A stretch of DNA of 50,451 nucleotides, from IMG/VR virus record IMGVR_UViG_3300043418_000062, positions 1 to 50,451 of that record; one strand, written 5' to 3'. The notes beneath the pieces were generated by a model. The model worked only from the letters and a program-made list of their open reading frames with translations, did no database searches and was not told the DNA's origin. The DNA comes from a virus (taxonomy: Duplodnaviria > Caudoviricetes). This document shows positions 3,154 through 42,929 of the stretch, in pieces. The translations under genes were made by a program, and so were the position numbers. How positions within the stretch are numbered: the first letter of the stretch is position 1; each line of letters begins with the position of its first letter.

Positions 3154-3194
3154 ACTATAAACCTAACACACAACACCAGATAAAGGATAAACCA

Positions 3195-4346: not shown

Positions 4347-4498
4347 TGACCGTTTATGTAAAGAAGAACGCAACCGTAATCGTGCGAGCTAAAAACTACA
4401 ATCACGCAATCAACATATTCGCCAGCAAAATGGGTTATGACCTTGAGTATGCTATTCTAAATGACGGATATACAATCGAAGTAGAGGAGACAATCTAA
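4346..4498 (+). CDS. 50-aa hypothetical protein
   Basis: TAATG coupling; translated by hand. Confidence 0.65.
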   Translation: MTVYVKKNATVIVRAKNYNHAINIFASKMGYDLEYAILNDGYTIEVEETI

Positions 4499-4668
4499 TG
4501 GCAATGACAATCGAGCAGGTTATCAAGTCAATCAAGTTTGAAATTGACCGAGCGCACCGAGACGCACAGATGTCTACAATTCAAGAAGACCTAGATTATC
4601 ACAATGGCGAATATGACGCACTAAACTTTATGCTAGAGATTATTGAGACAAGCAAGGAGAGCAACTAA
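4498..4668 (+). CDS. 56-aa hypothetical protein
   Basis: TAATG coupling; translated by hand. Confidence 0.65.
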   Translation: MAMTIEQVIKSIKFEIDRAHRDAQMSTIQEDLDYHNGEYDALNFMLEIIETSKESN

Positions 4669-7448: not shown

Positions 7449-7946
7449 ATGAAGAAGAATAAAGATAGCGCACTGCTTGACAGTATTACCCTTTCTCGCA
7501 AGGTCGAGAAGATTGCGATTGCTGACGCTCGCCTCAAGGCTAGTGATTGGGTTCGTGAGCAGACCGAGGAAGAACATTCTAAGGTTCTTGACGCTGTGCG
7601 AGACGCACTGATTGCTGGCTACTCAGCACGACAGATTGGTATTGCCTATGGCTCGACTGACCCATATACAGCTAAACGCCTTGTAATGGAGGCACAGAAC
7701 AGCAGTAGCAAGTCATTCGTTGAGGCTATGGAAAACCACCCAGAGTGGCTTGTAGAGGTTCACGACACCGACCGCTTCACTATCAAGGCTTTCGCTCTAG
7801 GTGAGCAGAAGTTGTCGGGTGAGGGTCTATTCACAGTTGATGAAGACGGCGAGAACTTTACGCAGATTGACGGAGATAGTTTCATTCAGGTTCAGATGTA
7901 TCGTCTAGGACTTGTTGAGCAGGTATTGGAGGAGGTTCGTGGATAA
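7449..7946 (+). CDS. Hypothetical protein, possible HTH DNA-binding
   Basis: ALIAGYSARQIGIAYG resembles an HTH. Confidence 0.55.
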   Translation: MKKNKDSALLDSITLSRKVEKIAIADARLKASDWVREQTEEEHSKVLDAVRDALIAGYSARQIGIAYGSTDPYTAKRLVMEAQNSSSKSFVEAMENHPEWLVEVHDTDRFTIKAFALGEQKLSGEGLFTVDEDGENFTQIDGDSFIQVQMYRLGLVEQVLEEVRG

Positions 7947-12401: not shown

Positions 12402-13130
12402 ATGAGTTCAGAATTTCCCGAACTAGCATTTGCTCAGTTCATTCACAAGGCAGAAGCCTTGAACGCACCGAAGAGCATCTTGCTTTACGGTGACGCAGGT
12501 CGAGGTAAGACTTGGCTTGCAGCATCAATCTCAGCAGTCGAGGAATACAATCCTGTACTACTAATTGACGTAGAGGGTGGCGCATCAGCTATCGCTCGTG
12601 ACTGGAAGAACGTAGACGTAATTAACATTACGACCCACGAGCAGTTCCAGTCTGTGATGGATGGTTTGCTAAACACTCCGCACAAGTACAAGACGGTAAT
12701 CATTGACACAATCGGTGTTGTGATGGACCGAGCAGAGAAGTTCTTTGGTGAGAAGCCGGAGAACAAGAGTAACAAGTTTGGTCGCTGGGGCGACCTAAAG
12801 AACTGGGCTAACGAGGTCTTCCGAGCGTTGCACACTGCATCGTTCGTAAGCATCCTGCTTGCCCACGCTCTTGATGACAAGGATGAAAACACTGGCGCAG
12901 TAAAGACAACAGCCATGCTTCCAGGTTCATTCAAGAGCACACTCCCTTCAATTCCAGACATCGTTGGATATCTTGGTGTAGAAAACACTGAAGAAGGTCC
13001 ACAGCGAGTTCTGGTCGTTGGACAGTCTGACCGATTGGTAACCAAGAACCGCTTTGGTTTGCCACCGAAGATTTACCAGCCAACCATGAAGGGCATCATC
13101 GACACTATCAATCAAGGAGGTAACAAATAA
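12402..13130 (+). CDS. AAA_24 / Sak4-like ssDNA-annealing ATPase
   Basis: YGDAGRGKT Walker A, IDVEGG, VIIDT, KNRFGLP; adjacent to nuclease and SSB. Confidence 0.85.
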   Translation: MSSEFPELAFAQFIHKAEALNAPKSILLYGDAGRGKTWLAASISAVEEYNPVLLIDVEGGASAIARDWKNVDVINITTHEQFQSVMDGLLNTPHKYKTVIIDTIGVVMDRAEKFFGEKPENKSNKFGRWGDLKNWANEVFRALHTASFVSILLAHALDDKDENTGAVKTTAMLPGSFKSTLPSIPDIVGYLGVENTEEGPQRVLVVGQSDRLVTKNRFGLPPKIYQPTMKGIIDTINQGGNK

Positions 13131-13615
13131 TGAGCAACATTCAGTTCAACATTTCACAGGAGGCGCTAGACGCTTCAGCATCATCAGACTACACCCCGAT
13201 TCCAGAGGGTAGCTACAACGCTACAATCTTTGAAATCAAGCAGGAGTTCGTGAAGTCTGGTCCAAACGAGGGTAAGCCTCGCTTTAACATCCAGTTCCGC
13301 CTATCAGATGCACCATACGCTAACCGTCGTGTATTTGGTTACGTTGCGTTGTATGCAGCAGGTGACTTCTGGAAGACCAAGGCGTTCTTCTCTGCTCTTG
13401 GTATCGACATGGCAGCTGGTACATTCACTGTGCCAGACGCTCAAGACCTACTAGGCAAGCCAATCGGTGTGCGTGTCAAGGTGGGGAAAGACCAGAACGG
13501 CGCTGACCGCAATGAGGTAGCAGGCTTTGATAAAGCCACCTCAGGCAGTGCCGCTGACGCAGTGATGGCATCGGTGGGCGCAACTCCGGTTGCCTCGTCA
13601 GGTAACGTCTGGTAA
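13130..13615 (+). CDS. Single-stranded DNA-binding protein (DUF669-like)
   Basis: YTPIPEGSYNATI...DLLGKPIGVRV...RNEVAGF pattern. Confidence 0.75.
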   Translation: MSNIQFNISQEALDASASSDYTPIPEGSYNATIFEIKQEFVKSGPNEGKPRFNIQFRLSDAPYANRRVFGYVALYAAGDFWKTKAFFSALGIDMAAGTFTVPDAQDLLGKPIGVRVKVGKDQNGADRNEVAGFDKATSGSAADAVMASVGATPVASSGNVW

Positions 13616-13629
13616 AAGTCCCAATGGGC

Positions 13630-13659
13630 AGTCCTGAGACATGACTTAAAACTGTCTCA
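13630..13659 (+). ncRNA. Small H-type pseudoknot motif, copy 3
   Basis: AGTC-CT-GAGAC-AT-GACT-TAAAACT-GTCTC. Confidence 0.65.
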
Positions 13660-13662
13660 CAA

Positions 13663-13737
13663 GCCCCTACTGGAGTTACACGCTTTTCTCTCTCCTCCTT
13701 TGTGTGTGTAGTCTGAGTTCGATTCTCAGCCGGGGCA
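13663..13737 (+). ncRNA. tRNA-like RNA with an anti-SD pyrimidine loop in place of the anticodon
   Basis: GCCCC/GGGGC-A acceptor; CTGAG-TTCGATT-CTCAG T arm; TACACGC/GTGTGTA stem with a 20-nt loop containing CTCCTCCTTT. Confidence 0.6.
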
Positions 13738-13772
13738 CGTTGTGGCAAAGCATGGTGTGTTATAATTATAAT

Positions 13773-14204: not shown

Positions 14205-14279
14205 TCCTGAATAGCAATCTAGGCGAGTGCGCCGAGCTGTTAACTCGGAGATAGGTTGGTTCGAATCCAACTTCAGGAG
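14205..14279 (+). tRNA. tRNA-Asn (GTT)
   Basis: TCCTGAA/TTCAGGA acceptor; CCGAG-CTGTTAA-CTCGG anticodon arm; TTCGAAT T loop. Confidence 0.9.
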
Positions 14280-14651
14280 CAAGGGCAAGCCATGTCCCCT
14301 TAGCCTATCAACTTGTTGTATAGGTAATCATGGCAAAGGGATAGGCAGACCAGCCGGCTTTAGGTCTGAGGGGAAACAACCCCCGTCTGATTCCCATCAA
14401 GGGCTGAACTGCTTGAGCATCGTCAAGATAGCAGTGAGATGGTTTCCGTATGGTTGCCAAGGGTGCAATTCCTTATCAGCCCACAAACGGTATTGCTGCT
14501 CAATAGGTTCGCTAGAGCCTAACGATTACGGATACCGGACCTGTAACCCATTGCTGCGGCAGGTTACGGGTTACCCGCCTCTGGGCGCATGTCTGCGGTT
14601 CGTCACTGTTCAGCACCCCGTAAGGGCATAAGCCATGCGCCCAGAGTGCAC
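14280..14651 (+). ncRNA. Structured non-coding cassette between the two tRNAs
   Basis: Successive long stems, a possible pseudoknot and a tRNA-like element; no credible ORF. Confidence 0.55.
14401..14483 (+). ncRNA. tRNA-like element with non-canonical D and anticodon region
   Basis: GGGCTGA/TCAGCCC-A 7-bp acceptor; T-arm-like AGGG-TGCAATT-CCTT. Confidence 0.55.
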
Positions 14652-14754: not shown

Positions 14755-16956
14755 ATGAAGACCAGCGACTTTCTAAGCGCTATTTATGGAGATGCCAAAG
14801 GTCTGGCAACCATCGTCACACGAGGTGCAAGCGGTGAGCTAACAGAGCAACAGTTCTATAACTACCCTGACCAGCGTGATGCTATGGTAAGCCACGTCAT
14901 TCAGCACCAGTCTGAAGACGTTTACTTTTCACCTATCCTATTCAATGCACCACGTCGCATCAAAGAGAACGCAAAGACCGTTCACGTTATCTATGCTGAT
15001 GCTGACTTCTGTGCTCCAGAAAACTTCCTCGTGGAACCATCCATCTCTGTGCAAACCTCTGAAGGTCGTTGGCACACTTACTGGATGCTAGACTCCGAGG
15101 TTGACCCACAGGTTGCAGCACTCCTCTCAAAGAAGATTGCATATGCACACTCGCACCAAGGTTGCGATAAGTCTGGATGGAATACCACAAAACTACTCCG
15201 TATTCCTAACACGATGAATCGCAAGCAGGGGGTAGATTACGCTATCACAGCAACAACGTCTGGCGCAATCTACTCCCTCGACGACCTGCTGCTTCACTAT
15301 GAAGACGTAAAAGTCGAGCCTATTCGTGAGTTGTCGCTAGAGCCACTACCTGAGCAATGGCCATCTGTCATGGATGTCATGGCTAAGATTCAGAGCAATC
15401 CTGAGATTATTGGATTGTACATGGACCAGCCATCGCTTAGTGCAGACCTATCTGTGCTTCTTTGGAAACTTGAGATGCTGCTATTCAAGCAGGGCCTCAC
15501 AGCTGAAGAAGTCTTTGTAATCGCTCGTAATGCCAAGTGCAACAAATACCACTCACCACTTCGCCCGAAGCGTCTAGACGCAGATGGCGACCTGTGGCGT
15601 GAGGTTCAGCGAGCAGCTGCATCTTATGGTCAGGAGCCAGCCGGAACTTCACTTGTTCCAATTGACCTGACCGACATTACTTCTACCGAAACATTCACTA
15701 AGCCAAAGTTCCTAACGGACTCTGAACGCCTAACAGTGTTAGAGCACAGAAACTTTATCGACGAATATCGAGACTGGGCTATGTCGAAGACCGATGGTGC
15801 AATTGCGTACCAGAACGCTTCAGCATGGACTCTACTATCTTGCGTGTTCTCAGATATCGGTTACGCTGTGCCTAAGTTCGGTAAGATGGGCCTGAACCTT
15901 TGGTTCATGGTCCTTGGTGAAACAACCCTGACTCGTAAGTCAACTTCCAGAAACCTCATGTTGCGTGCTGTGCGCCAGTATGAGAAGTTCTCTGGATACC
16001 AGATTGACATTGGTTCAGATGCTACACCAGAAGGCTTGACCGCAATCCTCGGAGAGCGTGACAAGCAGACATCACTCCTTCATCGAGATGAGGTCCAGGG
16101 TATGTTTAAGGACTTCATTAACAAGACCTATATGGCATCAGCAGCTGAACGCTTTACTGAGTTGTATGATGGTCACGTTCCTGTGACGATTCGTTCGTCT
16201 AAGGGCAAGACACAGACGGAGCGAGCCGAAACTAACTTTATTATGTATCTAATGGGTATCACCAGCAAGACTGCTGACGTGCTAACCACTGAATACTTCC
16301 GAAGCGGTTTCTTGGCACGTTTCATTTATGTTACAGCACCTACTCCACCTCGCACCAAGGAATCAGAAGATATCCAACAGGCTGACGAGTATGAAGTAGT
16401 TGTTCGTGACGAAGTTCTTGAGAAGATGATGAAGGACTTGTCAGATAGCGTTATGTTCTGGCAGAAGAAGGGTGGGCCGAGTCCTCGACCTGTTCGACTA
16501 AGCCAGCGAGCGCTAGAGCGCTTCAATCAGTACAAATGGGAAATGGGTAACTGGGCCGAGAATCATCCTGAAAAGGAATCTATCGAGCCATCACGCCAGC
16601 GTCTATCACTGTCTGTTTGGAAGTGTGCAGTTCTACTTGCTATGTTCGAGAAGTCAGAAGAGGTACAGGAGCGTCACTTGCTGACAGCTATTATGTACTC
16701 TGAAGACTGGTTCTGGAACCTAGTTCAGATGGCTGGAGCAATCTCAGCGTCTGAATGGCAACGTGACGTTGACCGTCTTGAAGCGTTTATCGTGGAGAAG
16801 GGTGGTCGTGTTCGTTACGAGGAGTGCTACAAGAAGTTCAGCAACAAGCGTAAGCGTGAGTTTGACGAGATGGTGGAAGCACTAAACTCTCAGGCTCGTG
16901 TGCACGAAGTAACAGAAAATCAGAAGCGTTATTTGGAGGTGGTTTCAAATGGATAG
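14755..16956 (+). CDS. RepB-like primase fused to a C-terminal P-loop/helicase-like (DUF3987-like) domain
   Basis: YFSP, YADAD, TSEGRWHTYW, LLRIPNTMNRK; C-terminal GETTLTRKST, RDEVQG, SGFLARF; start MKTSD after AAGGAGG. Confidence 0.8.
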   Translation: MKTSDFLSAIYGDAKGLATIVTRGASGELTEQQFYNYPDQRDAMVSHVIQHQSEDVYFSPILFNAPRRIKENAKTVHVIYADADFCAPENFLVEPSISVQTSEGRWHTYWMLDSEVDPQVAALLSKKIAYAHSHQGCDKSGWNTTKLLRIPNTMNRKQGVDYAITATTSGAIYSLDDLLLHYEDVKVEPIRELSLEPLPEQWPSVMDVMAKIQSNPEIIGLYMDQPSLSADLSVLLWKLEMLLFKQGLTAEEVFVIARNAKCNKYHSPLRPKRLDADGDLWREVQRAAASYGQEPAGTSLVPIDLTDITSTETFTKPKFLTDSERLTVLEHRNFIDEYRDWAMSKTDGAIAYQNASAWTLLSCVFSDIGYAVPKFGKMGLNLWFMVLGETTLTRKSTSRNLMLRAVRQYEKFSGYQIDIGSDATPEGLTAILGERDKQTSLLHRDEVQGMFKDFINKTYMASAAERFTELYDGHVPVTIRSSKGKTQTERAETNFIMYLMGITSKTADVLTTEYFRSGFLARFIYVTAPTPPRTKESEDIQQADEYEVVVRDEVLEKMMKDLSDSVMFWQKKGGPSPRPVRLSQRALERFNQYKWEMGNWAENHPEKESIEPSRQRLSLSVWKCAVLLAMFEKSEEVQERHLLTAIMYSEDWFWNLVQMAGAISASEWQRDVDRLEAFIVEKGGRVRYEECYKKFSNKRKREFDEMVEALNSQARVHEVTENQKRYLEVVSNG

Positions 16957-18201: not shown

Positions 18202-18936
18202 ATGAAGATTCTATTTCTAGACCTAGAAACAAGCCCAAATCTGGCTTATGTCTGGGGGCTATGGCAACAGAATGTCGCAATTACTCAGATGGTTGACTCA
18301 ACGGAAGTTATCTGTTTCGGTGCTCGATGGGCTGGAACTAAGAAGGTAATCTTCAAGTCAGTCCACCACGATGGCAAGAAAGGTATGCTAGATGAACTTC
18401 ACGCTCTTATGGAAGAAGCCGATGTCCTTGTTGGATGGAACTCTCAAGCGTTCGACTCAAAGCACATTAAGCGAGAGTTCGTTGAGAACGGATACCTACC
18501 ACCATCACCTTACAAAGAACTCGACCTCATGCGAGTCGTCAAATCTCAGTTCAAGTTCCCATCAAACAAACTAGATTATGTTTCACAGAAGCTAGGTGTC
18601 GGAGCCAAGGTTAAGCACTCAGGTTTCGAGTTGTGGACTCAGTGTATGGCTGGAGATAAAAAGGCATGGAAGGAGATGAAGGAATATCAGATTCAGGATG
18701 TGAACCTACTGATTGACCTTTATGAAATCCTAAAGCCTTGGATTAAGAATCACCCTCATGCTGGACTACACGAAGGCGTAGAAGACGGGTGCACCAACTG
18801 TGCGTCTACCAATCTTGAGAAGCGTGGTGTTACTCGAACAGTAACTCACACCTACCAGCGCTTCCAGTGTCGAGACTGTGGCAAGTGGATGAGAGGTAAT
18901 GAGTCAATTGAAAAGACTAATTACCGTTCTATCTAG
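18202..18936 (+). CDS. DnaQ/RNase H-like 3'-5' exonuclease with C-terminal zinc ribbon
   Basis: LDLETS, WNSQAFD, NKLDYV, YQIQDV; CTNC...CRDC. Confidence 0.85.
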   Translation: MKILFLDLETSPNLAYVWGLWQQNVAITQMVDSTEVICFGARWAGTKKVIFKSVHHDGKKGMLDELHALMEEADVLVGWNSQAFDSKHIKREFVENGYLPPSPYKELDLMRVVKSQFKFPSNKLDYVSQKLGVGAKVKHSGFELWTQCMAGDKKAWKEMKEYQIQDVNLLIDLYEILKPWIKNHPHAGLHEGVEDGCTNCASTNLEKRGVTRTVTHTYQRFQCRDCGKWMRGNESIEKTNYRSI

Positions 18937-19234
18937 TCTGTTCAAAAAGAAAAAAGTAGTATTAGAAGTTGCCCCAGTACGCAAGCCTAACGGTTTGTTT
19001 ACTGGGCACTCTGATACTCACTTGATTTTCTACACAGACGTAATCTACGATGAAGATTCAGGCGTTGAGCTAACTATTCAATACATCTGTGCGTGTGGTA
19101 ATGCAGTATATCGAATTACAGATGACTTCGGCTTTGGCTGTGAGCATTGCGATTCAGTATGCGGTCTTGATACCCCGGAGACACCATGCGAAAGATGTCG
19201 AGAATTGTTCTCAGTCGATTTTGAGGAGGGCTAA
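18899..19234 (+). CDS. Cys-rich hypothetical protein
   Basis: Multiple CxC and CxxC motifs. Confidence 0.6.
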   Translation: MSQLKRLITVLSSLFKKKKVVLEVAPVRKPNGLFTGHSDTHLIFYTDVIYDEDSGVELTIQYICACGNAVYRITDDFGFGCEHCDSVCGLDTPETPCERCRELFSVDFEEG

Positions 19235-19416
19235 TGCCGGTTTACGAATATAAGTGTGAGCCATGCGATACTCGATATACAGAGAGTCGAGGAATCACCG
19301 AGGAGCAGAAGTTGGTAAGCTGCCCCTCCTGTGATACAATACTAAAGCGAGTGTTCAACGCACCAGTAGTCACCTTTAATGGCTCTGGATTTTATGCAAC
19401 AGATAAGAAGAAATAG
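19234..19416 (+). CDS. FmdB-family zinc-ribbon protein
   Basis: MPVYEYKC..C...CPSC...F.GSGFYATD. Confidence 0.9.
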   Translation: MPVYEYKCEPCDTRYTESRGITEEQKLVSCPSCDTILKRVFNAPVVTFNGSGFYATDKKK

Positions 19417-19424
19417 GAGGAATA

Positions 19425-19799
19425 ATGCAGGGATTTGACTTAGCAGATACACTTGTTCATATCAATTACAAGTCTGGTAACATCGTTTCGGCAATTGGTT
19501 CAGCAAAGATTCTTTATCGCCCAAAAGGTGATTTTGTAATCATAACAGCACAACAAGATTCGCCAGAAATTCATCGTGCGGTTAGCGAGATGGTTTCAGT
19601 TAATTTTCCAAACTGTACACGAGTTCATTTTGTATCTGGTGGAGAAGCTGATATCATAAAGAAGAAGGCAGCACTTATCAAGAGCCTAGGTCTTACTGAT
19701 TTTACAGATAATAACAGAGCAATTCTTGCTGGAATTAAAGAGCTAAATACTGGAGCAAAGTTATGGGTGATGACTGGAAGCGGTCGTAAGCCATACTAG
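19425..19799 (+). CDS. HAD-like fold protein with a degenerate motif I
   Basis: GFDLADTL, IITA, KK and FTDN resemble HAD motifs I-IV. Confidence 0.5.
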   Translation: MQGFDLADTLVHINYKSGNIVSAIGSAKILYRPKGDFVIITAQQDSPEIHRAVSEMVSVNFPNCTRVHFVSGGEADIIKKKAALIKSLGLTDFTDNNRAILAGIKELNTGAKLWVMTGSGRKPY

Positions 19800-19814
19800 A
19801 AATAAGGAGGAAAT

Positions 19815-38289: not shown

Positions 38290-38424
38290 CTATCTTATCT
38301 CAACGATATCTGTAATCTGTTGACCACATGGTCCACAGATACAGAGTTCCGCTGGGTCCTCGAATGGGATTGCAATGCCGTTATTCTCACAGCCACTTGT
38401 GTGGCAAGTTAGGTTTTTAATCAT
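38290..38424 (-). CDS. 44-aa Cys-rich fibre-associated protein (CHTSGCEN...CGPCGQQI)
   Basis: Translated by hand; TAATG coupling to the collagen fibre gene. Confidence 0.65.
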   Translation of the reverse strand: MIKNLTCHTSGCENNGIAIPFEDPAELCICGPCGQQITDIVEIR

Positions 38425-40664
38425 TATCCTGCTGCTGCTCCTGATGTCATTTGAATTGCGGTCCAGTTAGCTGTACGACCAACGTTTCCTCCTGCTGTGC
38501 CAGCCCAAGCGTAGACAGTAAAACCTGATGCTGTAACGCTACCAACTGTTGCAGATGTTGAAGTGGCAGACGAAACCAGCGTTGCTGTAACAATTGGTGC
38601 AACGCTAAATCGTGAAGCTGGAAAAGTAACAGATGCGCTTGCTGTAACAGAAACAGAGCCAGCTGCCATAGAATAAGCAGTATTTGTTGCAACTGCTTTT
38701 CTTAGAAAGGTGACATCCCTAGTTGTGCCATCAATAGATAATACTACGTTATTACCTGAATCAAATATTCTTAGCGATGGTGAAACAGTTGAGCCAAAAG
38801 CATCAATACTCCACGCTATAGTATTATCTACTGCTCTAGCAAGTCCCAGCTGGCCTCCCTCCTCTATAGAATCTGTACGACTAATTTTTGTATTAACGTT
38901 AGATGCAGCATCCGTAAGGCCGTATCCAGCAATAGTAGTTGGCTTGGCTGTCAAGTCAGCAAATGCATGAGTGTGGTTACCTAAAGCAACAGTAGTGCCG
39001 CTTGTACCAGTAGGAACACGTGCAATGTCCAGCGTGCCAGAAGTAACATCTGCAGCTGCGTGAGTGTGTGAAGCAGCCGCATAAACACCAGTATGTAAAT
39101 GGTTACCCAGTGCAACAGTAGTGCTAGTTGTTCCAGTTGGAATTCTAGCGATATTAAAAATACCCGATGTAGTATCAGCTGCTGCATGAGTGTGTGATGC
39201 TGCTGCATAGGTTCCATTGTGATTGTGATTACCAAGCGCAACTGTTGTTCCAGTTGTGCCAGTTGGAATACGAGCAATATCTAGGGTTCCAGATGTGATA
39301 TCAGCAGACGAGTGGGTGTGACCAACCGCTGAAATGCCAGCCTCGGCAAGCGTCTTGTTTTCCCATAGGTTAGAGGCTGTGCGTTGAATAACCTCACCAG
39401 TTGCAGGAGCATCAATCTTCACGTCGTGTAGTTCATCTAGCTCAAAACCGTTTTGTGGTTTAACAAAGATTTCACCATTATTAGCATTTACACGAGTTAC
39501 AACACCAATGTACACAAGGTGGTCAGGTGCAGATGGTTTAGTAGTTGAGCCGCCATAGTGCCAAAAGATAAGGTTACCATTAGTTCCAAGCCATACCGCA
39601 TCGCCAACTGTTGCTGTAGAGGTGTCCAAGCCAGCAAGCAAGCCCTCGGTTATAACATTAACCTTAGCATTAGTTGACCCACCATTTTCAAGTAGACCCA
39701 TAGTCTTAGACGATGTTGCTTCAGCTGCATTAGATGCCTTGGAGACAATCATGTTTGTGCCATCAGCAGATGAGACGTATACAGCTTGCCCCTTAGCAAT
39801 TGCATCGCCAAGTTTTACTTCATGCTTAATAGTTGAGGTGTAAGATGCAGCTGGAGCTACATTTGTCCAATAGGTATTGTAGTCTGTGCCATCAACCTTT
39901 GTTAAAATCTGGCCAGCGGTTCCACCGGCTGCAATGCCAGGTCCAGCAGGGCCGGTGGCTCCGGTAGCTCCCTGGATTCCTTGTGGGCCAGTTGCACCTG
40001 TTGCACCTGTTGCACCAGTAGACCCTTGAGGGCCAACAAGAGAGTCAAGCCATTCAGCTTCTGTACCGGTGAATCCATCTAGCTGTGCAATCTGATAAGC
40101 AGATAAACCAGTTAAGCCTTGGTCGCCTTTTGACCCAGTAGCGCCAGTAGAGCCAGTTGGACCAGTAGCACCCATAGGACCTTCAGGACCTGTCGGACCT
40201 GTAGCACCATCAGCACCGGCTGGGCCAGTGAGCCCAGTTGCGCCCTGAGGACCAGTTTCTCCCTGCGGTCCCATAAGACCAGTCTCACCTTGGATACCCT
40301 GAGGCCCCTGAGGTCCTGTTGCACCAGTCTCTCCTTGAATACCCTGTATTCCCTGCGAACCCTGAGGTCCAGTATCGCCTGTAGGGCCAGTTTCTCCCTG
40401 TAGACCTTGTGGTCCCATTGGGCCAGTTTCGCCTTGAATTCCTTGAGGCCCTTGTGAGCCTGTTTCTCCCTGTGCACCTTGTTCTCCTTGAATACCTTGA
40501 GGGCCTTGTGGTCCAGCTGGCCCCTGCGTTCCGGTGCCAGAATCTGAGCCACCACCGCCGCCGCCGATTGGTCGCTTATCTAGTTTCTTAATTTCCTTCT
40601 CAACCTTCTGAGTCCAATCCTGGGACTGGGGAGGGAGATTTGTGTCAGGGAAGTAGATTGTCAT
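38424..40664 (-). CDS. Collagen-like fibre protein with His-rich repeats
   Basis: Long Gly-X-Y tract; three HTH..AD.TSG...[16 protein letters not shown] repeats; likely start MTIYF at 40664. Confidence 0.85.
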
Positions 40665-40701
40665 AATACATCTATTATACCACTGATTGTCTCGAAATAC
40701 G

Positions 40702-40740
40702 AAAAACCCCTCGGAGCGATAAATGCTCAACGAGGGGTTT
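40702..40740 (-). terminator. Intrinsic terminator downstream of nrdJ and the candidate sRNA
   Basis: AAACCCCTCG...CGAGGGGTTTTT on the - strand. Confidence 0.8.
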
Positions 40741-40778
40741 CTCTAACACAACACACATAGTAAGGAGGAACTATGTGC
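40702..40778 (-). ncRNA. Candidate ~75-nt sRNA with anti-SD loop
   Basis: TATAAT at 40788-40783, then CACATAG-TTCCTCCTTA-CTATGTG hairpin, then terminator. Confidence 0.5.
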
Positions 40779-40790
40779 TTCTATTATATC

Positions 40791-42830
40791 TTACTTATTG
40801 TTCTCCACAATCAACTTGACTTCACAAGCATCTGTGGTGCAGTACGCTTCGCCAACTGCGTCAGCTGCCATACCAGCATAGACACCAGCAAAATCAATCG
40901 GAAAGAGCTGCAATGCGTATTCTTCATACTCTTCTTTTTGAATCTGTGTGTAAGGCATCTGTGGATAAACGTGGTTTCCAGATGGCAAGAACGATACAGT
41001 CTTTAGCTGACCGTCGTACATATGCAATACGGTTCCAACGTGCTTTGATTCTGTTTCTGGGTCAAATGTCACAGTCACAGATACTGAGTTATCGGACCAG
41101 TAACGCTGTGCGGTTGCAGCAAGAGCCATCTTCTCGAAGATTGATACATCACGTTCAGCACGTTTTGCACCAGCCTTGATTGGGAAGAATACAACTGAGG
41201 TGCCAGTTGGGTCTTCTGAAGCAGCCTCGACTCGATAGTTAGCCATCTTGAATAGAGGTAGCATCGGGTCAGAGTTCTTGAAGCGAATTGCACGAAGGAA
41301 GTATTCGCCACCCGGAGTCCAGTGAACACCTGGTGATTCACCTGCGAGGATTGATACAGTGCCAGATGGCTTAACTGTTGTCATCTTCACAGAAGGGCGA
41401 ACGCCTAGCCACTCAGAGTAAATCTCGTCATAGCTCTTTACTGTGTCGTAGCCTTCATCCATCCACTGCTTCAAGACTGGGATGCCATTGTTATCAGCGA
41501 AGTTAGCGATACCAGAAATAGATGTTCCGATACGGCGGTTACGCTGCATAATGGCGTTAGTCTCTTCCCAGTGAGTAGGAAGCAAAGTTACTGTCTTTGC
41601 GTAGAGGTAAGCAAACTTCAAAGTACGCTTGAAGTCCTCTAGTGACTCGTGACGGTTCAAGTAGGTTTCTACAAGGGTACACATCTCGAATGACTCTAGT
41701 GACTGCTCTGCACAAGGGTTATATCCGACTACTCGGTGGTCCTTATTGTTTGGGGCATCTTTTAGGCGACCATATTTGCGTGACTGGTCCATCCAGATAA
41801 CTCCAGGCTCACCATTGCGGATAATGCCATCAACAATAGGGCTGAAGTCAGTTCCAACTGAAACCTCTACTGAGTTGTTAGACATCCAAGCCCAGCCTGG
41901 AGCCTCTGCATCATATGAGTTACGCTCAGGGAATCGCTCTGCGTTCTTTAGGTTTAGGAAGTCCTCGTCGTCAATGCGACCGATTAGAAGCTCCGCTGAA
42001 CGGCGAACGTTACCAGCAACAACAGCAACACCAATCATGTTACCAATGTCAGCGATGTCCTTGCGAGTTAGCTGCTCACCTTCACGACCAAGGAAAATCT
42101 TGCGAATACCGTTGTGCAACTTCATCAGAGGCTCAGGACCAGAGGCAGTTCCACCAAAGGTCTTGATAGGCTCACCGTATGGGCGAACCTGGTCGTAGTT
42201 AAAGTCCCAGCTAGGCTGTCCTGGCTTTAGAAACGAGTTGATAACTGCTGCTAGTGACTCAGCCCAACCCTGACGAGTGTCAGGAATGTCGTAAGTCTGT
42301 GGAGCGCCTGGAGCGTAAATCTCAAAGCCCTTGTCTGCACCCTTGTCATCAAAGCCAACGCCAACGCCAAGCATAGATGCTTCCATAAGGAAGTTGAATG
42401 GCTTTGCTGGGTTATTCTTGGTCATCTCATTAGTTGAGACAAACGCACAGTTCTGAAGGGCTGCTGAGTTCTTCTGAACATTAACAATGTCAGTTCCCAT
42501 GACCCATAGGCCACGACCAGGTGGTGTCCACTTTAGGTCAAATAGACGACTAAAGAACTCCTTTGCCGAAGCCTGTGCTTTTGCGTCTGACCAAGGCAGT
42601 CTCTGTTGCTTCGCATAGTCCTTCTGAAGGCTGTAGGTGCCATTTGTGACACGCTCACATACATCTGCCCAAGTTTCCTTTGTTCCGTCTTCCTTGAGCC
42701 TGCTGTAGGTTCTCAGGAAGGTAATTTCACCTACCGAGTTACCGGCAACGTCGGTGTAACCGAATGGTGCCTGTTTTTTGCGATAATCGCTGACGAATTC
42801 GTCTGTGAGCTTGAATGAAAAGATGCTCAT
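40791..42830 (-). CDS. nrdJ: Class II (adenosylcobalamin-dependent) ribonucleotide reductase
   Basis: PPGRGLW, LQNCAF, GNVRRSA, NPCAEQ, TTVKPSGT, DNSVSVT; C-terminal CTTDAC. Confidence 0.95.
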   Translation of the reverse strand: MSIFSFKLTDEFVSDYRKKQAPFGYTDVAGNSVGEITFLRTYSRLKEDGTKETWADVCERVTNGTYSLQKDYAKQQRLPWSDAKAQASAKEFFSRLFDLKWTPPGRGLWVMGTDIVNVQKNSAALQNCAFVSTNEMTKNNPAKPFNFLMEASMLGVGVGFDDKGADKGFEIYAPGAPQTYDIPDTRQGWAESLAAVINSFLKPGQPSWDFNYDQVRPYGEPIKTFGGTASGPEPLMKLHNGIRKIFLGREGEQLTRKDIADIGNMIGVAVVAGNVRRSAELLIGRIDDEDFLNLKNAERFPERNSYDAEAPGWAWMSNNSVEVSVGTDFSPIVDGIIRNGEPGVIWMDQSRKYGRLKDAPNNKDHRVVGYNPCAEQSLESFEMCTLVETYLNRHESLEDFKRTLKFAYLYAKTVTLLPTHWEETNAIMQRNRRIGTSISGIANFADNNGIPVLKQWMDEGYDTVKSYDEIYSEWLGVRPSVKMTTVKPSGTVSILAGESPGVHWTPGGEYFLRAIRFKNSDPMLPLFKMANYRVEAASEDPTGTSVVFFPIKAGAKRAERDVSIFEKMALAATAQRYWSDNSVSVTVTFDPETESKHVGTVLHMYDGQLKTVSFLPSGNHVYPQMPYTQIQKEEYEEYALQLFPIDFAGVYAGMAADAVGEAYCTTDACEVKLIVENNK

Positions 42831-42892: not shown

Positions 42893-42929
42893 AAAAGCAA
42901 ATCCCCCACCCCGAAGGGTGAGGGATTGC
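42893..42929 (-). terminator. Intrinsic terminator after the major capsid gene
   Basis: Stem with C(UUCG)G loop followed by a U-rich tract on the - strand. Confidence 0.8.

Follow-up and report, generated by a model that had tools for sequence, protein, structure and literature searches.

The window analysed here is the complete 50,451-bp virus record IMGVR_UViG_3300043418_000062 (Caudoviricetes), which carries direct terminal repeats. Genes on the + strand occupy ~1-21.4 kb and cover replication, nucleotide metabolism and two tRNAs, and the remainder is taken up by - strand genes that include terminase-like, portal-sized, capsid, nrdJ, fibre, tail tube and tape measure genes. Between nrdJ and the fibre gene, on the - strand, lies a compact unit made of a promoter-like box, a hairpin whose loop resembles an anti-Shine-Dalgarno (anti-SD) sequence, and an intrinsic terminator. 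This stretch, from roughly 40778 to 40702, is very probably a conserved structured RNA unit and probably a small RNA gene of ~77 nt. Read along the - strand, the features of the locus are:

40791..42830, - strand: nrdJ, a class II B12-dependent ribonucleotide reductase gene (Pfam RNR_Alpha 2.6e-30, RNR-II_ins_dom 1e-11)
40783..40788, - strand: TATAAT, the -10-like box of the RNA unit (from sequence; a box lies upstream in 61/62 distinct members)
40753..40778, - strand: hairpin 1, a 9-bp stem GCACAUAGU/ACUAUGUGU with the 8-nt anti-SD-like loop UCCUCCUU (from folds and helix 1 covariation)
40744..40752, - strand: GU-rich single-stranded linker GUUGUGUUA (from sequence, folding and family comparison)
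40701..40743, - strand: intrinsic terminator, a long G+C-rich stem with a conserved apex (GUU bulge, GAG..CUC) and a U run (from folds and helices 2 and 3)
40674..40682, - strand: extended -10 box TGGTATAAT of the fibre gene, 9 nt before the ATG (a family-wide box)
38424..40664, - strand: collagen-repeat fibre gene, ATG at 40664..40662 (Pfam Collagen 2.4e-24; conserved N-terminus)

The nrdJ stop codon TAA occupies 40793..40791 (- strand), and the last base of the TATAAT box lies 4 nt ahead of the 9-bp stem. A transcription start ~7 nt past the box would fall at 40778..40776, at the base of the hairpin. The loop UCCUCCUU spans 40769..40762 (-), and 40743..40701 is an intrinsic terminator, a G+C-rich stem-loop with a U run behind it on the transcribed strand. 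A first-pass annotation of this DNA had described a TATAAT box, hairpin, linker and terminator after the nrdJ stop; all are present; where it counted a 7-bp stem and a 10-nt loop, it took a more conservative reading of this hairpin. For the 80-nt RNA the folding energy is -38.3 kcal/mol (z = -8.43), a value that 0/200 shuffles equalled. On either side of the unit, nrdJ has its own TGTTATAAT promoter-like box at ~42880 and a AAAGGAGGA SD, and the fibre gene starts at ATG 40664 without an SD sequence.

Relatives of nrdJ were collected first (80 loci, 727 kb searched). Five of these loci carry the unit, with hairpin stems that are wholly different around the same loop core, and all five also have the fibre gene. 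In one of them (L003) nrdJ and the RNA unit have a small additional gene between them, which indicates that the unit travels with the fibre gene; the tie to nrdJ proposed in the first-pass annotation is thus not upheld. Loci were then collected through the 30-aa N-terminus of the fibre protein, independently of the RNA. This yielded 79 loci, so that all family counts below refer to 80 sources (the window plus the 79 fibre loci) with 62 distinct sequences.

A covariance model, R1, was seeded from nine gap-free sequences. R1 misplaced hairpin 1 in members that bear a linker, and a second model, R2, was rebuilt from 22 correctly aligned R1 matches. R2 found one match each at E <= 0.01 in 80/80 sources, always on the fibre-gene strand; the window scored 44.9 bits (E 9e-9), and each of five whole records gave one match. 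At E <= 0.1 no match appeared in the other 75 nrdJ loci (five matches in total in 727 kb).

Rfam (15) had no match to the unit; the cuckoo family discussed below was absent among hits up to E 10 on 40400..41000, and at gathering score across the window. Searching cultured phages with the fibre N-terminus by tblastn gave nothing better than E = 9, so that the unit is not known from any cultured relative. Three matches came from a scan of a genome collection: one true member (53.4 bits), one weak match (24.5 bits) and one that R2 did not confirm. The true member (L297, 3970-4045, -) has the loop CACCUCCUU and lies on a 9.5-kb contig in a metagenome-assembled genome titled uncultured Rhodoluna sp.; a phage contig binned in this way is a weak hint at the host group. 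Viral contigs were also scanned for the pattern CCTCCT..CCTGTTGAG, and most of the matches listed looked like chance. A stricter re-filter (loci L002 onwards) passed seven, namely L002-L005 from the nrdJ search, the new L089 and L142, and the chance match L086; L119 is also a member, judged by eye. The RNA family is conserved and previously uncatalogued, and its carriers are a lineage of uncultured freshwater phages of ~45-50 kb.

MAFFT alignments (A1, A3, A4 and A5) misaligned the variable hairpin, and RNAalifold on A4 gave the terminator only. Pairs were counted in an alignment, A10, fitted to the R2 structure, whose counts lean towards the model. In the 62 distinct rows of this alignment 99.0% of paired cells hold standard pairs, versus 72.2% in shuffles and 42-51% in controls with slid partners, and 16/19 pairs show double (compensatory) changes. 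The covariation score is 0.760 versus 0.226, with 0/500 shuffles as high. Helix 1, which bears the loop, has changed on both sides at 6/6 pairs, with 4-6 pair types each and 97.3% of cells paired; helix 2, in the terminator, has changed on both sides at 9/10 pairs (99.7% paired); and helix 3, at the apex, is invariant (G-C 62/62, A-U 62/62). A check free of any alignment gave the same picture of the loop: CUCCU sat in a hairpin loop of the sequence's own minimum free energy fold in 58/62 members, versus 51/620 composition-matched controls. The hairpin and terminator structure is far beyond chance, since covarying stems recur in 80/80 related sources.

The same pairs reveal the functional strand. 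At columns 61/96 a U.G pair occurs in 26/62 sequences, which on the opposite strand would be a C-A mismatch, and the frequency of U.G and G.U pairs fixes it as the fibre-gene (-) strand. This bears on a reading under which the motif would be an ordinary ribosome binding site (RBS), TAAGGAGGAA, lying on the + strand 4 nt from ATG 40773 and serving a 77-aa open reading frame (ORF) antisense to nrdJ. The ORF exists (40773..41006) and AGGAGG does stand ahead of it, yet the ATG lies in the stem, and in relatives other letters take the place of that stem (e.g. GCACAG/CTGTGC, GTCCCA/TGGGAC), so the start is not conserved; the U.G and G.U pairs make the structure valid on the - strand only; and all surrounding genes are on the - strand. 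We regard this reading as extremely unlikely, and the case named in the first-pass annotation as the one that would overturn its proposal is thereby excluded.

In contrast to the stems, the loop is nearly constant. CUCCU is present in 62/62 distinct sequences, CUCCUU in 55/62 and CCUCC in 45/62; UCCUU is found in 55 of the 62 loops, leaving seven without it, and 17 of 62 are without CCUCC. Most loops read CCUCCUU, the letters of the 16S rRNA 3' tail and the complement of AAGGAG/AGGAGG, and several are CACCUCCUU or UACCUCCUUU; the bacterial 16S rRNA 3' end reads ..CACCUCCUU... The comparison indicates that the loop letters are under selection, CUCCU being constant though the stems are unrelated in sequence. 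The GU-rich linker, by comparison, is dispensable: many family members have one and others are without.

A second fixed element stands at the tip of the terminator (40725-40730 and 40714-40717, -), where the GUU bulge and GAG..CUC are invariant in 62/62 above a freely covarying lower stem, a contrast suggestive of a sequence-specific contact. We considered whether TTGAG in the apex could be the -35 element of the fibre promoter and rejected this candidate, as it lies 45 nt from the -10 box, which is too far.

Promoter-like boxes accompany both the RNA and the fibre gene. In 61/62 distinct members the modelled helix is preceded, within 12 nt, by a TAnA[AC]T box, with a gap whose mode is 6 nt (33/61) and with TG two bases upstream of the box in 42/61. 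Before the fibre ATG, a -10-like box stands at 4-9 nt in 59/59 distinct loci in which the ATG was found by motif, at a spacing of 6 nt in 18, 7 in 8, 8 in 6, 9 in 25 and 4 in 2; in the remaining three loci (L235, L237 and L269) such a box is visible by eye. The two boxes share their geometry, one relative to the helix and the other relative to the ATG. In the window the predicted leader of the fibre mRNA would be ~2-3 nt, a leaderless-type start. The first-pass annotation had called the promoter of the RNA late-type, a label that the box does not bear out: TGnTAnAAT is found before genes on both strands and in both modules, so timing is unreadable from it.

Two side observations concern these boxes. 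At starts 38280 and 24872 (-), (A/G)(A/G)TAGAAT stands exactly 6 nt before the ATG in a shared GATAAG(A/G)TAGAAT context, making these structural-module genes further candidate leaderless genes. In L235 the RNA unit (862-930) lies ~570 nt further upstream of the fibre gene, and a different small gene (MKTCKVCGES...) follows it, with TAGAAT 6 nt before its ATG; in this arrangement the unit and a leaderless promoter can serve another gene.

In 21/62 distinct loci an intrinsic-terminator-like hairpin lies <=90 nt upstream of the unit, after an ORF of ~370 aa, so that the unit is bracketed by terminators, leaving its own box as the sole one that could drive it there. In the other 41/62, the window among them, the unit follows an ORF directly without a separate terminator and must also end that gene's transcripts. 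The RNA unit is probably its own transcription unit, as judged from the boxes and their surroundings. Family conservation, covariation and the preceding terminator in 21/62 loci support the first-pass description of a self-contained promoter-hairpin-terminator unit with a selected anti-SD-like loop.

The 41 loci fit a cis-acting explanation, under which the hairpin stabilises or processes transcripts, the terminator insulates the upstream unit from the leaderless promoter of the fibre gene, and the conserved loop and apex are sites for a nuclease or an RNA-binding protein, with no role in trans. Ending the transcripts of the gene before it, as with nrdJ here, is what such punctuation would do; the invariant apex GAG/CUC and GUU bulge resemble a protein site; and a terminator placed just before a leaderless promoter keeps the mRNA 5' end defined. 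In addition, the nrdJ 3' end is continuous with the hairpin and terminator in one RNA-library contig. However, this explanation leaves the -10 box at a fixed short distance in 61/62 members and the full unit behind another terminator in 21/62 without a role. Stabiliser hairpins need no invariant CUCCU loop, and a separate tRNA-like RNA, described below, shows the same motif elsewhere in the genome. On balance we think a purely cis-acting function rather unlikely.

The arrangement of a constitutive-looking promoter, a short structured transcript and a strong terminator directly upstream of structural genes in 80/80 sources also recalls the lambda PR'-6S RNA-tR' arrangement. By analogy, polymerase from the first -10 box would end transcription at the terminator by default; made resistant by a phage factor or by the hairpin itself, it would read on and express the fibre gene and the structural genes beyond. 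One RNA-library contig extends past the terminator into fibre sequence, and some members (e.g. L238 and L249) have AGGAG <=9 nt before the fibre ATG. A second -10 box, 4-9 nt ahead of the ATG in 59/59, nevertheless gives the fibre gene a start of its own, most read-through transcripts would offer an ATG without an SD, and no antiterminator gene was identified, none having been sought. Such an antitermination leader seems to us very unlikely.

Transcripts of the region could be sought in three RNA libraries among the runs that hold window DNA, which are kept as contigs only, with ends and strand unreadable. RNA-library contigs cover the unit at depth 4-5 (two runs, one study). The low-depth contig X10 (40707..40867) contains the nrdJ 3' end and the hairpin and stops in the terminator, and X13 (40516..40771) is the contig reaching across the terminator as far as the fibre gene; both derive from close relatives, and DNA carry-over or read-through may account for either.

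The RNA library X4 has no listed contig over 40639..40942: a fibre contig ends at 40638 and an nrdJ contig at 40943, whereas the DNA run X1 spans the region in one piece. An RNA-library stretch without cover proves nothing, small RNAs usually being lost from such libraries, and this gap is not used as evidence. Depths of the X4 contigs are 900, 556 and 3281, the last at the capsid end. In that deepest contig, sequencing-adapter letters stand directly before 42938, which is 7 nt beyond the capsid stop and ahead of a terminator hairpin at 42927..42900; the junction may be an RNA end or an artefact.

The loop motif recurs in this genome on a second, unrelated scaffold. A second RNA candidate lies at ~13636..13737 (+), between the ORF 13130..13615 and a TGTTATAAT box at 13758. 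Its first part is a hairpin of conserved sequence (GAGACA..UGUCUC); behind this comes a tRNA-like piece that has no D arm but a 5-bp acceptor-like stem, a canonical T arm CUGAG-UUCGAUU-CUCAG and an 'anticodon' arm, whose loop in the window is the 18-nt UUUUCUCUCUCCUCCUUU. ARAGORN and Rfam do not call this RNA; in the window ARAGORN calls only tRNA-Asn and tRNA-Thr, at 14205 and 14652, and Rfam agrees. The tRNA-like RNA is present in 5/5 whole records examined, the window counted, with CUCCUU in the loop of each. With a pattern blind to the loop it was located in 13 stretches of viral contigs, at least L311 among them coming from a record already counted. Its positions elsewhere are:

L291 ~14450-14560; L285 ~4470-4580; L288 ~16700-16810; L295 ~7670-7780; and L300-L312

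Nine distinct versions, including that of the window, were folded. Their stems and T arms covary by eye, the pyrimidine loop of the 'anticodon' arm is 13-20 nt long, and every loop contains (C)CUCCUUU. This is probably the RNA that the first-pass annotation counted as the first of two anti-SD RNAs, and its point that two unrelated scaffolds expose the motif holds. The occurrence of CUCCUU on both makes a stronger case that the motif is the functional part.

Among the mechanisms considered, the most likely is that the unit encodes a trans-acting anti-SD RNA that masks SD sequences, a proposal we advance tentatively. Transcription of the RNA would begin at the hairpin base, under an extended -10 promoter of its own, and in this phage the RNA might also be produced as the 3' end of nrdJ transcripts. 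Its exposed loop would pair with the SD (AAGGAG/AGGAGG) of mRNAs and hinder 30S binding, and translation would shift from strongly SD-led messages, those of host genes and of phage replication-module genes, in favour of weak-SD and leaderless structural genes, including the adjoining fibre gene.

For nrdJ and several starts in the replication module, the duplexes predicted between loop and SD are as stable as -12 to -14 kcal/mol. With crude gene calls, the loop pairs better with starts on the opposite strand than with those on its own strand in the window (p 0.011) and in the related record G005 (p 0.009), and G004 leans the same way (p 0.085). Boxes of the -10 type 5-9 nt before starts number 2, 2, 2, 3 and 6 on the RNA's strand, versus 0, 0, 0, 0 and 1 on the other; those of the window precede starts 40664, 38280 and 24872. 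These strand asymmetries fit a damping of strong-SD messages that would leave weak-SD or leaderless structural genes untouched.

Beyond the lean of the pair counts and the doubtful origin of the two RNA-library contigs, several results weigh against SD masking. The SD-strength asymmetry is absent in two further records, again with crude gene calls (G001, p 0.39; G002, p 0.92). Among the longest exact loop complements in the window and four whole related records no homologous RBS recurs, and in a window-wide duplex scan ordinary SD sites rank no higher than some sites outside translation initiation regions. Strong-SD genes of the phage itself, nrdJ and the replication genes, would be hit too. 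The invariant terminator apex is unexplained by the masking model, and a tRNA-like RNA with the same motif inside the replication-module strand argues against simple late shut-off.

Specific targeting fared no better. The first-pass annotation had singled out the RBS of the dUTPase gene, and the letters it cited are there: TAAGGAGGAA at 19803..19812, ahead of the dUTPase ATG 19815, and TAGGAGGAA ahead of the starts 12402 and 19425. The 10-mer match is within chance, with five matches of the 10-mer at <=1 mismatch versus 2.56 expected and 11/100 shuffles reaching five, and the dUTPase RBS is not singled out as a target by recurrence in the four other records.

Some leaders on the + strand have letters that partly complement the GU linker of the small RNA. 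At 3165, 3553, 4146 and 5737 (+), CA-rich tracts (ACACACAC, ACAAACAAACACACA) run into AAGGA(G), and three of the four stand behind TGCTATAAT boxes. We rejected two-site pairing (loop with SD, GU linker with CA leader) as a general mechanism, as CA leaders are absent in G004 and G005, which bear a linker, and many members are without a linker. The duplex scan did not place the CA leaders at the top; 5741 scored -22.2 versus a mean of -11.3 (standard deviation 3.3).

Because many loops match the 16S tail beyond the core that pairs with an SD (e.g. CACCUCCUU and UACCUCCUUU), the loop could instead be a decoy that imitates the tail and occupies a factor recognising it, leaving mRNAs alone. Candidate factors would be toxin endoribonucleases that cut the anti-SD, of the kind found in actinobacterial toxin-antitoxin systems or abortive-infection defence, or some other tail-binding protein; the RNA would act as a competing substrate or inhibitor and protect ribosomes. 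Enzymes that cut the anti-SD region have been described in Actinobacteria. According to passages of PMC5408214, MazF-mt3 cuts U^CCUU, including that of the 16S anti-SD, and loss of the anti-SD is said there to favour leaderless mRNAs; PMC12274833 reports that MazF-mt11 cuts C^ACCU just ahead of the anti-SD; and RelE1 is likewise reported to target the 16S anti-SD region. The presence of UCCUU in 55/62 loops and of the motif on two unrelated scaffolds would suit a titrating decoy made in quantity, and capsid relatives of the phage point to actinobacterial hosts. Yet the unit has no linked toxin or partner gene, and the seven loops without UCCUU and 17 without CCUCC are hard to fit. The decoy rests on analogy throughout, and its host is not known to have such a toxin. 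We judge it unlikely, though a live rival.

As to the host, capsid relatives at ~39-45% identity in 70 cultured-phage records are mostly actinophages, with phages of Microbacterium (19), Arthrobacter (18) and Streptomyces (7), although the single best capsid match is a Stenotrophomonas phage. The carriers are probably phages of Actinobacteria, with which -10-only promoters and leaderless starts are in keeping. A broader conjecture, to which we give little credence, is that these phages display a mimic of the 16S tail on two unrelated scaffolds to control SD-dependent initiation, either as toxin decoys or as cell-wide SD masks that would let leaderless and weak-SD structural genes win ribosomes. 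If true, these phages would encode an RNA switch for the host's mode of translation initiation.

Small RNAs with anti-SD loops are already known from bacterial chromosomes. Streptococcal csRNAs of the CiaRH regulon reportedly combine stem-loops and a terminator with anti-SD complementarity, as the phage RNA does; their anti-SD is said to lie in a single-stranded region between two stem-loops and their promoters to depend on CiaR, whereas the phage RNA has its motif in a loop. The closest described kind are the cuckoo RNAs of Alphaproteobacteria (RSs0680/alpha-r14/C14-type). In passages of PMC4615179 these are chromosomal, have 2-4 adjacent hairpins each with CCUCCUCCC, keep an anti-SD-like loop while their stems vary by compensatory changes, and are thought to occlude RBSs. 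The likeness lies in variable stems (helix 1, 6/6 pairs double-changed) around a conserved anti-SD-like loop (CUCCU, 62/62). Unlike cuckoo RNAs, the phage RNA shows the motif on a single hairpin and ends in a terminator whose apex is conserved, its loop reads (C)CUCCUU with CCUCCUCCC in 0/62 distinct loops, and it is phage-borne, tied to a leaderless fibre gene and matches no Rfam model. It resembles cuckoo RNAs but is not a member of that family.

Two other comparisons are looser. In RNAIII of S. aureus (hairpins with UCCC) and in the Rsa RNAs, C/U-rich loop motifs make the first contact with the target SD (passages of PMC4615179); those RNAs, as described there, have defined targets and longer pairing, whereas the phage RNA keeps only a generic SD complement and no specific target was found. 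In the c4 antisense RNA of phages P1 and P7, loops pair around the RBS of a message and block its translation (passages of PMC12197685). As portrayed in those passages, c4 has one target (ant), serves immunity and is processed from a longer transcript; the phage family has no specific complement beyond the SD and carries its own promoter-like box. The passages of this same review of phage-derived small RNAs mention no anti-SD, leaderless or actinobacterial case (PMC12197685). For a phage-borne family with generic anti-SD letters only, fixed before a leaderless structural gene and accompanied by a second scaffold, full-text searches of the literature and Rfam 15 gave no description.

The family is conserved and uncatalogued, and from its letters and setting we infer the mechanism. 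A functioning covariance model and 62 distinct sequences define it well, so that it is open to direct tests and could enter RNA family databases. Should the RNA be made and bind either SD sequences or a factor that recognises the tail, phages of abundant freshwater bacteria would have in it a simple device to redirect translation initiation, which would bear on a question still open, how Actinobacteria balance leaderless against SD-led translation.

Near the start at 19425, a small zinc-ribbon-like ORF with two CxxC pairs (MPVYEYKCEPCD...SCPSCD) occupies 19236-19415 (+), with 18899..19234 before it and 19425 after it; the CCTCCT at 19325 is part of its coding sequence.

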